Origin: Octopus vulgaris
Lineage: Eukaryota
DNA: 64,000 nucleotides
Assembly: GCA_951406725.2 (NCBI GenBank)
Contig: OX597824.1
Coordinates: 57,660,001 to 57,724,000 of the forward strand
Reading direction: 5' to 3'
The notes below the pieces were generated by a model, which saw only the letters and a program-made list of their open reading frames with translations, was not told the origin of the DNA and made no database searches. Of the stretch, positions 26,170 to 56,968 are shown piece by piece. Position 1 is the first letter of the stretch, and every line of letters starts with the position of its first letter. Made by a program: the position numbers and the translations under genes.

Positions 26170-28074
26170 CTAGCAGTATAGACCGGCGTTGCCTAGGATT
26201 AAGTTAGGATTATTATGCTAATCAAGCGCTTTGTTTCATACCAAACTAAGACCGACGTCAAATTTGAGTGAAATTCACTCATCGATCGTTTTTTTGGGGG
26301 TGGGGGGAGAACTTGAACCATTCAAAGATCCCATGAATCCTAAGTAACGCCGGTATCAAGTTTGAACAAAAGACATAAAAATTGGTTGAAAATGTGGTGT
26401 AGCCACTTTTACGGAGAAATACTATAAGGAATCGGTCCATCGATTTTTCATCCTGATTGAATGGGAAACCCCATAAGGAATCAGTTTATTGATTTTTCAC
26501 CACAAACAGGACTTAACCGAACACAACATTACTGATTCAAAAAATCTATATTTATACTTTAAAGTTGGTTTTCACACCCAACCTAGTTCTGCAGAATATG
26601 TCACGACGTGAACGCGTGGGCTGGGAGTTTGACCGGAAGAGGTGATCAGGATGTACATGCTAGACCTTTCGACCCCTCCCCATCATCTAACACCCCTTGG
26701 CCCATATTTTATATATATATAGGTTCAGCAAAAATTTAGATTCAAATGAATATGGTACTTAATTTAGATGCACCAGAATTCTGTATGGTGTTATCCATAT
26801 AAATCCGTGGGGTGGTTACAATCAAAATAAGCAACAAGAATGACTCCGGTAATTTGGTACGATCGTTTCGTACTACATCATTTTATTAAATGCTGTAAGT
26901 ATTACAACAGTTTTAAAATGCTGAGTACACACCAGCCAATTATAGTGGTTTTCCACTTGATATGAACATTTTTGTATTAATGGAAAACCTCTATAATTGG
27001 CTCTATATCAGCATTTTAAAACTGTTGTAATACTTACAACATTTAATAAAATGATGTAGTACGAAACGATCGTACCAAATTACCGGAGTCATTCTTGTTG
27101 CTTATTTTGAGTATATATATATATATATATACACACAATATGTTACATTCTCTGCTATATATATATATATATATACTTTTAATAGCGAATGTTTATCTAT
27201 GTAAAATGTTGGGAGTGGGTAAAATTTCCGAGGCTTCCACCTCACCCCAACTCGTTTTTCGGAGGTCACAAGAATTCATTCAACGAAAAAGAAATTCTCA
27301 ATGATTCCGGGATGGGGGGGAGGCCTCGTCCCACCCCATTTTCTCCGAACGAAAATAAGGGATTTGCAGCATATTAGGAGGTCAGGGTACTTGATTTCAC
27401 GCAAAAAAAAGTCCGATTTTTATTTTTTTCGCTAGTGAAAATCCTATGGGTGGAAAGATCGATAGGGGTGGGGGTGAAATTTTTGAGGCTTCAATCTCAC
27501 CCCACCCCGTTTTTGGACCCCCAAAAGGATTTTGTAGAACATTAGGAGGTCACAGGAATTCATTCAATAAAAAAAAAAGATTCCAATGATTCTGGGATGT
27601 GGGGTCCCCCTCGCCCTACCCCTCTTCTTTCCGAACCAAAATAAGGGATTTGCAGCATATTAGGATTTCAGGGTACTTAATTCCACGCAAAAAATCCGAG
27701 TTTTTTTCTTTTTTCTCAGTGAAAATCGTGCGGCTGTTAATCTAAAGTTTTTCCCTTTGTTTTTCTTTCTCGCCTTTGCTAGACAGGGGAATTAACTCAT
27801 GTTAGCAAACTTATGGATTTCACCGACGTGGAAATTGGTAAGAGTTATGGTTGAAAATCGATTTTTACCATTATCCGCGGACCCTCGGGGAAAATAAGTT
27901 GACAAAAACACAGCCATGATCGTGACCAATGTCCTCCTAAAATTGGAGCGACGTGCGTGCTAATTTGTGGACGTGCATAAATTACATTCACGTACACACA
28001 CACACACACACACACACACACACACACACACACACACACACACACACACACATCCTGCCTTTTATAGATATAGA
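26170..28074 (-). mobile_element. Non-autonomous Helitron containing a PLE module and ~270 bp internal tandem repeats
   Basis: Minus strand starts A|TCTATATCTATAAAA and ends with hairpin GGC-AAC-GCC then TATACTG-CTAG|T: canonical TC...CTRR ends at an A/T site with no TSD. Confidence 0.75.
26720..27110. mobile_element. PLE pseudo-LTR inverted-repeat module with two decayed hammerhead copies
   Basis: Arms ~26822-26955 / ~26981-27110; each has GTAC-GAAAC-GATC-GTA-CCAA; same family as 36680-36815. Confidence 0.85.
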
Positions 28075-28076
28075 TA

Positions 28077-28250
28077 AGGCGAGCTGGCAGAATCGTTAAC
28101 ACGCCGGGGAAACAGCTTATTAGCATTTCGTCCGTATTTACGTTCAAATACCAACGAGGTTGATATTGTCTTTCATTCTCTCGGAGGTGATAAAATAAGT
28201 AGCAGTTGAGCGCTGAGTACTGTGGTCGAATAACCCTTTCCCCGAATTGG
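28077..28250 (+). mobile_element. SINE family B
   Basis: AGGCGAGCTGGCAGAATCGTTAACACGCCGGG head. Confidence 0.8.
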
Positions 28251-29899
28251 TGTGTGTGTGTGCGAGTGAGAGAGAGAGGGGGGAAACATACGCACACATA
28301 TATAGGTATATGAGTATATATCCCTGTGTTTTTATACACCTCGTCACAATGCGCTCTCTTGCATTGTTATAGCTTTTGAAAGGTGAAACCTGCTGGCTAA
28401 GCGGGCAGTCTAGCATTCCCACTCAGCAAAACACCGATCCTGCGCAAGGATTTCTGCAAACCCAGGAGAAACGGCACTGATGTCGGGCGTTGCAGTCATC
28501 CACGTCATCTTACAAACTGTCCGATTCTGACGCCAACGCTCCTCAATGCATCGCTGCCGAACTTAGTCTATTCAATCAACTGCACTGGTCTGGTTTATGT
28601 ATACATATACATACATACATACATATATATATATACATATATGTATATATGTATTTATACATATACATATACATACACACATATATATGTGTATATATAT
28701 ATATATATACACGTATACATTTATATATATACACATATATATATATATATATATATTTATATGCACACACACATGCATGTGTATGTATACATATATGTAT
28801 GTGGAGAGAGAGTGATACATAAACATATATAGACAGATATATTATACGTGTAGGTGTGTGTTTGTGTGCGTGTGTATGTATTTATGCATATGAGTTTGTG
28901 AGTGTGAGGGAGAGAAAGAAGAATGTTTCACGGCCAGTAATAGATACCTAAATATCAAGAGAAATCTGGTATGTTTAAATTAACGTCTTTCATTGGGCAA
29001 TGTGTTGAAATATATTTGTTAATTCTTTAAACTGGTCGTTCTTTGTGTTAAAGGATGGAGAAATTGTGTTCGTGTTAATATCAGAGATATGAAATAAACA
29101 TTTACTCTTGTTTGTTTCTACGAACGTGTGTATGCTGCTGAACTTGCAATTACATACATACATACATACACACATAATTGCACACCCAAATACACACATA
29201 CGCATATATTTTAAGTTGTTTAAATACAAAATAAGGGAAATTCGCAATTCACGGCAAAGTACTCAATACAAAAAGTGAAGTGGAAATAGGTTTTATTGAT
29301 ATATTAAGATGGTGTTTCTTAGACAATTATTCCTATTTTTATAGGGAATTCTTCTGTGTGTGTGAGGAAGAAACGTATATGAACAGAGTGTAGTTAATTT
29401 TCGTTTAAATTATGCTACGTACGTTTTGATAGCAAAGCTCATTATTTGTCTACAATGTTTTACATATGAGGTTACGTAACACGGATTACTTTATATAAGT
29501 TACATATTCACCCATCATTTTAGGCATTTTGAACGGTTGATACTTCTATTTGGTCTGTGATTTTTTCAATTCGAATTTTAGGGAATATTTCGAGGCGGTT
29601 CAACATAATCTCACCACCTACTGGGGGGGGGGTGTAACACACATAATATAATTCATGTTATGTAATCTAAAGTAATAAAAATAATAAGAAGGCTCAAAAT
29701 ACATTCCAACTCCTAATTTTATGAATTGGACCAAGTAAACAAGACTATAAAATGCTGTTATAACAAAATATAACAGATTCAGCATAAGTAAACGATATAC
29801 AAACATACATACCTACCTATTTACCCACCAACTTGCATATACATACATACATACATACATACATACATACATACATACATACATACATACATACAACTT

Positions 29900-30660
29900 C
29901 CACAGAAACAGTGATGTTGACAGGCTCTACCTAAGAAAAAATGAAGCTCGTAGAGGCCTTGAATGCCGTATGGTATCACTCAAGCAGCACCTGTTAAACA
30001 ACAGCAGGAAAAATATATATATTAATGCAGTCCTGAAAAGTGGAGTGAGCAACATTGTACAGGTTGGCAGTGAATTCCTTCCTGATCACCTCCTATACAG
30101 CCCCAAAACAGCTGGGCTCTCTGATGAGCAGACCTGAATGGAAAGCACACAGCATAGAAAAAAAAGACCATGCATGGGTATGTTGACTGGAAGCTTGAAG
30201 AAGACAGTAGAATTGACACGAAGCGCAGCCTCTCTTGGACACAAGACCACTAAATCACATCGCACTTTGAAGGCTATGCGTTTGTAATCCAGGAACAGGG
30301 AATTGCCACAAAGTACCTGGTGAACAAGAGAAACAGTGACGCTCTTGTAATCCCAAGACGCAACCGCATGTGTAGACTATGTCATGTTTCTATGGAAGAC
30401 ATTACACAAGTGATTAGCAGCTTTCCTAAAATGTCGTCACAGTACTACTTCCTTATGCGCTAAAACAATTGAGACAAATGTCTATGTCTGCAGGGCAGCT
30501 AACCTCATTGAGGTTAGCTGCCCTGCAAGACATAGACATCACTTTGAGAATCTAAGACAAAGAGGATATCTATGGACAACTTCTTCCAAACCTGCAGCTT
30601 CTATATCCAGACTATGAATTCATATTCATACCAATAATAATTGGAGCACAAGGTTTCGTT
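29900..30660 (+). mobile_element. Dong/R4-like LINE 3' fragment with internal deletion
   Basis: MHGYVDWKL, FEGYAFVIQEQGIATKYLVNKR, CRLCH...EDITQVISS, then YGQLLPNLQLLYPDYEFIFIPIIIGA. Confidence 0.75.
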
Positions 30661-55929: not shown

Positions 55930-56250
55930 AGCACTCCGTCGGTTACGGCGACGAGAGTCCCAGCTGATACGATCAACGGAACAGCTTGCTCGTGAAATTA
56001 ATGTGCAAATGGCTGAGCATTCCACAGACACGTGTACCCTTAACGTAGTTCGCAAGGAGATTCAGCGTGACACAGAGTGTGACAAGGCTGGCCCTTTGAA
56101 ATACAGGTACAACTCACTTTTGCCAGCTGAGTGGACTGGAGCAACGTGAAATAAAGTGTCTTGCTCAAGGACACAACGCGTCGCCGGGAATCGAACTCAC
56201 AACCTTACGATCATGAGCCGAATGCCCTAACCACTAAGCCACGCGCCCTC
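55930..56250 (-). mobile_element. tRNA-derived SINE, family D (different head, family C 3' body)
   Basis: Minus head GGGCGCGTGGCTTAGTGGTTAGGGCATTCGGCTCATGATCG...GAGTTCGATTCC plus GTGTCCTTGAGCAAGACAC; 3' ~170 bp shared with family C. Confidence 0.85.
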
Positions 56251-56668
56251 ACGAATATGAATCTATATATGAATATATATATGTGTGTGCTTACAAATAG
56301 CATATACATTACGCTATTCAATTTAAACATTACTTTTTAAATTAAATTTTGTTTTAGGATTTATGCTATAATGATCTTCAATACACATTTCGATGATGCT
56401 TATAAAACTGTTAGTTTCTTTATACACAGCTTATCTATCTGTCTATCTATCTATCTATCTATCTATCTATCTATCTATCTATCTATCTATCTATCTATCT
56501 ATCTATCTATCTATCTATATATATATATATATATATATATATATATATATATATAGAAATTCGGGGTGAGTACTTGATAATTATAAGCACCTGTGTATAC
56601 CGTTTGGTGGCGTAGGTGGTGGAGTAAATTGATCAAAATAAAAATAAAAACATGAGGCGAAGGATTCA

Positions 56669-56746
56669 GCGGTACATATGTTTCGGGCCTTTATTAGACA
56701 GATTTATAACAAAGTATAATGTATGTCTGTGGCCTTCTTCAGCCGT
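56669..56746 (-). ncRNA. Hammerhead H1, inverted copy
   Basis: Reverse complement of 56891-56968 with one stem I change (ACGG). Confidence 0.8.
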
Positions 56747-56890
56747 GCACAACAGCTTCCACAAGGACATGTGTTACATCAAAAATTCTTGGTTGGGGAC
56801 GCAAATCCTCTGTCGTACGTGAACGAGAGGATTTGCATCCCCAACCAAGAATTTTTGATGTAACACATGTCCTTGTGGAAGCTGTTGTGC

Positions 56891-56968
56891 GCGGCTGAAG
56901 AAGGCCACAGACATACATTATACTTTGTTATAAATCTGTCTAATAAAGGCCCGAAACATATGTACCGC
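56891..56968 (+). ncRNA. Type I hammerhead ribozyme H1
   Basis: GCGG-CTGAAGA-AGGCC...GGCCC-GAAAC-ATAT-GTA-CCGC. Confidence 0.85.

Follow-up and report, generated by a model that had tools for sequence, protein, structure and literature searches.

Long-helix II hammerheads of Hydra-clade Penelope-like elements are predicted to be an abundant, lineage-specific variant in Octopus vulgaris

What are the long-armed hammerhead ribozyme motifs scattered over a 64,000-nt stretch of the Octopus vulgaris genome (GenBank assembly GCA_951406725.2, contig OX597824.1, forward-strand positions 57,660,001 to 57,724,000; hereafter the window)? This microsatellite-dense stretch of a 2.8-Gb assembly of 227 contigs contains ten copies of the motif, which fall into five families termed H1 to H5 (Table 1). 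A preliminary description proposed that they form a subclass with an 8-nt palindromic stem III and a length-constrained stem II (helix II) of 50-60 nt, spread by several lineages of Penelope-like elements (PLEs) or their non-autonomous derivatives. Our sequence comparisons indicate instead that they are a lineage-specific and abundant long-helix II variant of the known hammerhead of Hydra-clade PLEs, not a length-constrained subclass.

The ten sites, their stem III octamers and the distances between their CUGANGA and GAAA boxes (H1 51, H2 59, H3 50, H4 60 and H5 54 nt) were re-read as first given. A strict descriptor (type I, intact core, stems I, II and III paired, helix II of 45-65 nt, perfect 8-nt palindrome) matched the window five times and had no match in any of 200 dinucleotide-type shuffles. 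The core is intact in six of the ten copies and broken in all three H2 copies and in the single H5 copy. The GCGG/CCGC pairing given for stem I of H1 holds in general but not for the copy at 56669, in which the 5' arm is ACGG. All ten copies do sit in (TA)n, which begins 27-117 nt beyond the predicted cleavage site in nine of them and about 135 nt beyond it in the copy at 26854. Among the closest genomic copies of each family (the 30 best matches to each window copy, itself included), the CUGANGA box is kept in 30/30 for H1, 27/30 for H2, 25/30 for H3, 30/30 for H4 and 25/30 for H5, and C3 is present in 27 of the 30 for H2. The weak stem I reported for H5 is real in the window copy, where the 3' arm is lost. 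It is a trait of that decayed copy and not of the family, since 21 of the 30 closest copies combine the full motif with a perfect 5-bp UUUUC/GAAAA stem I (CUGAUGA itself is found in 25). First-look searches of the genome returned 1,084, 1,441, 262, 1,328 and 1,314 candidates for H1 to H5, figures that are not copy numbers.

Judged by the frames that precede them, all five families are predicted hammerheads of the 3' pseudo-long terminal repeats (pLTRs) of a single PLE clade, Hydra. Each lies 0.5-1.9 kb downstream of, and on the same strand as, Hydra-clade frames for a reverse transcriptase (RT) and a GIY-YIG endonuclease. A 627-aa open frame comprising RT core, thumb and GIY-YIG ends 1.95 kb upstream of H1 at locus L031, while the distances behind related frames are 1.14 kb for H2, 0.48-0.59 kb for H3, 1.1-1.2 kb for H4 and 0.56-0.7 kb for H5. 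The architecture is that of one open reading frame (ORF), RT then C-terminal GIY-YIG, which is open over 627 aa in H1 and 806 aa in H3 and fragmentary in H2, H4 and H5. The H1 and H3 proteins contain, respectively, the linkers CNCRCASEC and CNCRKPKLC (CxCX5C), CQLC and CRLC (CxxC), and CIH and CVH (CxH), and their endonuclease domains, as judged by eye from the domain sequences, lack CCHH. The H3 frame shows the N-terminal DKT, and both frames are 5'-truncated before the RWK region. The Hydra clade is defined by these protein motifs, insertion into (TA)n and universal hammerheads in the account of Craig et al. (2021, PMC8557442); our assignment was made through the motifs, our trees holding metagenome relatives and elements of this genome rather than named Hydra references. 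(TA)4 occurs within 250 nt downstream in 23 of the first 30 genome matches, a proportion that comes with no background rate. H1 copies vary in the length of shared upstream sequence, form inverted pairs and have two alternative end points before (TA)n, which is the usual Penelope-like signature. First-look searching of the genome for a Hydra-type protein gave 30,769 candidates, and 61 of 63 scored matches are free of internal stops.

Each family is tied to its own RT/endonuclease frame within one clade, rather than to several PLE lineages or non-autonomous derivatives, whereas the reading of the motifs as type I hammerheads of PLE pLTRs with a dimer-type palindromic stem III is supported. Direct pLTR-ORF-pLTR copies were found for families with 39-nt and 10-nt helices (L384 and L354). 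The elements are not the short Hydra elements of less than 3 kb with a canonical short-helix hammerhead, as their 3' untranslated regions (UTRs) measure 0.5-1.9 kb and their helix II 50-60 nt. In this genome as a whole, Hydra 3' UTRs extend over 0.2-2 kb, while those of metagenome relatives span 70-320 nt; the excess holds even when the arm is 10 nt.

Three further observations concern these hosts. Between RT and endonuclease, the proteins of H1, H3, H4 and H5 carry long inserts rich in Asn. At L400:1990-3490, an inverted pair of H4-lineage pLTRs adjoins the 5'-truncated H3 frame without a TA spacer, forming a heterologous PLE junction. In all six copies read of a young Hydra family with intact 717-aa frames (L404-L409), the motif a few hundred nt past the ORF end has the core CCGAAGA (U4C) and a helix II of 31 nt.

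Is the long helix II of constrained length? The genome was searched with the pattern CTGANGA-N(a,b)-GAAAC-NNNN-GTH. Matches with 44-68 nt numbered 37,631, against 1,218 for a reversed-pattern control (31-fold enrichment), those with 14-43 nt 18,481 (control 1,662) and those with 69-98 nt 12,354 (control 1,227). Both the stem I and palindrome checks were passed by 23/30 of the first matches at 14-43 nt, 22/30 at 44-68 nt and just 4/20 at 69-98 nt, so the last class is thinner than its raw count. The loci fetched through these searches, which are not a random sample, form 69 sequence clusters that span 12-97 nt without a gap of more than 5 nt, and one helix II of 107 nt was seen. One recognisable lineage occurs at 39, 44, 68 and 75 nt, another at 55, 73 and 80 nt, and arms of 10 nt and 31 nt occur in young families whose frames are intact. 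Genome-wide, then, helix II ranges continuously from about 10 to about 100 nt, and the proposed length constraint does not hold. The 50-60 nt band is the mode of high-copy families, and within the 44-68 nt class lengths of 53-63 nt account for 26 of the first 30 matches. Nor is the 8-nt palindrome a trait of the long form, as it was found in 27/30 matches in the short-helix and long-helix classes alike.

Related elements from metagenomes carried the motif in 61 of 78 loci, and their 52 distinct sense-strand motifs measure 10-29 nt. A 64-nt metagenome match (L290) was set aside, having a 4-nt stem III and lying 2.6 kb beyond the element's own 25-nt hammerhead. In an endonuclease tree built by a quick method, the 39-73 nt families grouped together with a Shimodaira-Hasegawa approximate likelihood ratio test (SH-aLRT) value of 81, one 67-aa long-branch fragment of a 55-nt family falling outside. 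In an RT tree of short, partly non-overlapping fragments, all 35 metagenome rows split off at 94 together with the 10-nt family and one unlabelled fragment. The trees weakly suggest that the 39-73 nt families are a local radiation apart from the short forms. The long helix II of this genome exceeds that of related elements two- to fivefold in length, with occurrences in the tens of thousands. The motifs offer a graded set of natural arm lengths, 10 to about 100 nt, all on one ribozyme scaffold, that can serve as a probe of helix II tolerance and of the role of PLE hammerheads.

Rfam at the gathering score gave no match in the window, targeted scans over H1, H4 and H3 gave no hammerhead family at E<=10, and an E-value scan gave, among the matches listed (150 of 318), only microsatellite-driven or other chance matches below the gathering score. 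Whether such forms were already described, which the preliminary description left open, has a mixed answer: the Rfam models miss the long form, and two spike-moss PLE hammerheads with arms of about 50 nt have been published. Since about 37,600 genome matches at 44-68 nt are invisible to Rfam and also exceed the 7-17 nt spacer with which Craig et al. searched for the core alone, the number of hammerheads in such genomes may have been greatly underestimated.

The closest known systems are the published Hydra hammerheads. Across the 26 Hydra rows of File S2 of Craig et al. (PMC8557442), we counted 12-26 nt between the boxes, with 23 nt in Hydra-1_Obim of Octopus bimaculoides. They resemble the window copies in being type I, in their 3' pLTR location, in their CUGANGA/GAAA core (often with an extra nucleotide after position 9), in a self-complementary stem III of 4 (sometimes 3) bp, in GUA, GUU or GUC triplets, in (TA)n insertion and in a host with the CxCX5C linker. 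They differ in that the boxes lie 50-60 nt apart here and up to about 100 nt apart in the genome, in that their stem III is mostly 9-10 nt with a 1-3 nt loop where ours is a loopless 8-mer, and in their much shorter 3' UTRs. In the same file, the spike-moss elements PLE-X1_sMoe and PLE-X1_sTam (box-to-box distances of about 54 and 48 nt; marked 'deviates from canonical structure') provide a long-helix precedent, but these two families are from plants, lack the endonuclease, target ribosomal DNA, are related to Chlamys and have a short stem III, in contrast to a genome-wide radiation. The minimal PLE hammerheads, as reported in PMC4209133, share the pLTR site, the palindromic stem III region, the dimer model and the many consensus families per genome, and their helix II was already termed 'larger than usual' at 7-8 bp; they differ in an absent or tiny helix III and a short helix II, and in the window motifs of that kind stand apart, at 10706 and 9206. 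Animal non-LTR retrozymes, as presented in PMC7229834 and bioRxiv 10.64898/2026.07.22.740005, likewise have type I hammerheads derived from PLE pLTRs but form head-to-tail non-coding arrays, whereas H1-H5 in the window represent ends of coding elements, present singly or in inverted orientation. No head-to-tail non-coding repeats with one hammerhead each were found among these window copies, which are single or inverted and ORF-tied.

Retrozyme-like arrays were seen elsewhere in the genome (L390:1774-3650 and L260; 594 bp x4 and 534 bp x3), each unit having a hammerhead with a 70- or 50-nt helix.

In the literature searched, we met no description of hammerheads with a long helix II in animal PLEs or in cephalopods, although some might stand in Lunse 2017, in the Terminon work or in supplementary files to Cervera 2014, Perreault 2011 or the 2026 preprint. 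In the available text of the 2026 O. vulgaris repeat annotation, a search for the terms 'ribozyme' and 'hammerhead' returned neither. What appears new is thus the long helix II in animal Hydra elements, the ribozyme class, the host element, the palindrome and the dimer model being already known.

The long arm is structured. Predicted folding of helix II surpasses that of shuffles over 55 long subfamilies (median z -2.0), and its distal part has a median z of -1.3 against +0.1 for upstream controls, the subfamilies not being independent. In 13 subfamilies of the H2/H4 lineage, 94% of cells are paired, and the test on a second lineage gave 93%, values reached by 0/500 shuffles, with slid controls of both tests at 28-56%; the sequences are related and the structures were derived from them, so that shuffle counts are not probabilities. 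Ten H5-lineage subfamilies share a 10-bp proximal helix II with five compensated pairs, and no distal hairpin common to these ten was found. RNAalifold missed the proximal helix II in alignment A2 as a result of gap placement. Compensatory changes thus bear out the earlier statement that the stems differ between families yet pair, and the long helix II is both structured and covarying, with distal folds that differ between lineages.

How could such a ribozyme work? As isolated monomer hairpins, the octamers cost +2.4 to +4.7 kcal/mol, against -6.4 to -11.3 for self-duplexes, and the probability of stem III in the predicted monomer is at most 0.18. An unstable monomer helix III and a strong self-duplex fit the dimer model described for PLE hammerheads (PMC4209133, PMC6765202). 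According to the results reported for the anole PLE (PMC11167929), hammerhead cleavage required the element's protein, the hammerhead was dispensable for insertion in vitro, on which core mutants had no effect, no RNA-seq read ended at the site, and RT started inside the RNA at two 'tail' ends; the two tail lengths of H1 match this last picture. We favour, with a probability of roughly 0.62, a dimer-type and probably protein-assisted predicted ribozyme in which the distal helix II would be tolerated as an accretion of no fixed length and kept as a hairpin. In a two-copy transcript (a tandem pLTR-ORF-pLTR, or two RNAs), the paired 8-nt palindromes would form one 8-bp helix III, and the RNA would be cut after GUA, GUC or AUA, probably slowly or aided by the element's protein as in the anole PLE. 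New genomic copies would be reverse-transcribed from uncut RNA, as copies retain both sides of the cleavage site, with a start 27-135 nt past it. Catalysis may need only the base of helix II, while the distal part would have grown through AT-rich insertions and fold-back duplications and would stay a hairpin mainly to avoid misfolding of the core. Such an arm would displace terminal loop 2, whose contact with loop 1 marks fast hammerheads.

Several observations weigh against the tolerated-accretion reading. By copies, the ratio of long forms to the 14-43 nt class is about 2:1. The 13 subfamilies of the H2/H4 lineage share a 7-bp distal hairpin with 93% pairing and one doubly compensated pair, and AAUAAA or AUUAAA is kept in 12 of them 16-26 nt before the predicted cleavage site. 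Identity is 0.72 in distal helix II and 0.61 in the 40 nt upstream (shuffled, 0.61 and 0.59). Hairpin, hexamer and identity go beyond what tolerance alone would lead one to expect. In predicted monomer ensembles, stem I has a probability of 0.01 in H4 and 0.16 in H5. Finally, no direct tandem copy of H1-H5 was seen in the loci examined, where pairs are inverted.

A rival reading takes the extension as a functional module, which would act either by bringing a poly(A) signal 17-26 nt upstream of the site in H1, H2 and H4, so that folding, cleavage and polyadenylation compete, or as a docking site for the RT-endonuclease that assists cleavage. The hexamer keeps its position in the H2/H4 lineage with its two forms interchanging, despite a changing pairing partner. 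A GU/U-rich tract lies past the predicted cleavage site, and the distal hairpin is conserved in a ribozyme whose anole counterpart needs protein. Of 28 clusters of metagenome Hydra elements (L276-L353), 15 have a hexamer that starts between -1 and +15 of the site, where shuffles lead one to expect 2.1 and the reverse complement yields 1. H5, with its hexamer at +3, retains this layout, and a hexamer near the site is also visible in several rows of File S2 of Craig et al. However, the conserved motif is AAUWAAA, of which either W yields a canonical hexamer, the short-helix clusters of this genome show no enrichment after the site (3/26 vs 1.6), no distal structure is common across lineages, and the clusters share descent. 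The poly(A) signal was rejected as a general explanation of the long arm, only 7 of 45 long-helix clusters having a hexamer at -40 to -17 against 8 for the reverse complement. We regard a functional module as possible, with the odds clearly on the other side. Far less probable is that the motifs no longer cut and that a hammerhead-like fold is kept as a structural signal for RT near its initiation site, leaving helix II free to grow. The anole results on core mutants and read ends, the U4C core of the young intact-frame family and the poor in vitro cleavage of PLE hammerheads reported by Cervera and de la Pena (2014, PMC4209133) all go in this direction, but CUGANGA, GAAA and UH are kept over dozens of families whose stems are fully replaced, at 31-fold over the reversed pattern, which is the pattern of selection on a catalytic core. 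A distinct subclass with helix II fixed at 50-60 nt, carried by several PLE lineages or non-autonomous elements, would account for the 53-63 nt mode, but the continuous 10-100 nt range and the single PLE clade with coding frames make it hardly credible.

Distinct from the cause of the long arm is the overlap itself. The H1 lineage, too, has AAUAAA or AUUAAA within the 3' strand of its helix II, 16-26 nt before the predicted cleavage site. Hydra elements might overlap a poly(A) signal with their hammerhead just after the site in most relatives, the signal having moved upstream into the newly grown helix II in H1, H2 and H4, where it would act as a 3'-end switch; we consider this scenario doubtful. 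If true, the ribozyme would choose between polyadenylated mRNA, cut RNA and uncut RT template, which would assign a testable function to the unexplained PLE hammerhead, in cassettes dispersed over the genome by the tens of thousands; even the overlap alone, if real, bears on the open question of PLE hammerhead function. One review with passages on polyadenylation signals aside, no account of such an overlap was found in the literature searched.

Table 1. Hammerhead copies and associated features of the window (positions from the first nucleotide of the 64,000).
Feature	Position	Strand	Details
H1 hammerhead, intact	31755..31832	+	stem I 31755-58/31829-32; core 31759-65; helix II 31766-31816 (51 nt), AAUAAA within its 3' strand; GAA after helix II; palindrome 31820-27; predicted cleavage after A31828
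H1 element end, 5'-truncated	31430..31944 (approximate limits)	+	3' UTR/pLTR, ribozyme, long tail; flanked by (TA)n
H1 hammerhead, core intact	56891..56968	+	one arm of inverted pair
H1 hammerhead, core intact	56669..56746	-	3-bp stem I (ACGG/CCGC); inverted partner of 56891
H3 hammerhead, intact	33265..33341	+	helix II 50 nt; palindrome AUGGCCAU; predicted cleavage after A33337 (AUA triplet)
H3 hammerhead, intact	34506..34582	-	inverted partner
H4 hammerhead, intact	46386..46474	+	helix II 60 nt; predicted cleavage after A46469
H2 hammerhead, C3U core	36697..36782	+	UUGAUGA; helix II 59 nt
H2 copy, mutated core	26854..26939	-	CUGGUGU; left arm of inverted pair
H2 copy without CUGANGA box	26997..27078	+	right arm of inverted pair
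H5 decayed copy	34909..34993	-	core AUGAUGA (C3A); helix II 54 nt; GUC triplet; stem I 3' arm lost
GIY-YIG endonuclease C-terminal fragment, frameshifted	35084..35390	+	Hydra-clade element carrying H2 36697, 1.3 kb upstream of H2

The H1 end was matched, at a word share of 0.44-0.64, by sequencing runs of four organism labels. In four such runs, from two of the labels, contigs that end at 31831 were considered as cleavage ends and rejected, their 30-nt overlap with the next contig marking them as assembly-graph branches.

Other features were noted in the window. Two minimal hammerheads of another family, with a 12-nt helix II and an ACGU stem III, lie at 10702-10737 (+) and 9175-9210 (-); these motifs, at 10706 (+) and 9206 (-), are absent from the list of the preliminary description. 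Positions 4747-6346 (+) hold broken frames resembling a DNA transposase, in which HTH_psq and a PHD-like finger occur. At 58168-58974 (+) lies a fragment of a different RT (Pfam RVT_1, E 0.002, below the cut-off), which we take to resemble another PLE clade.

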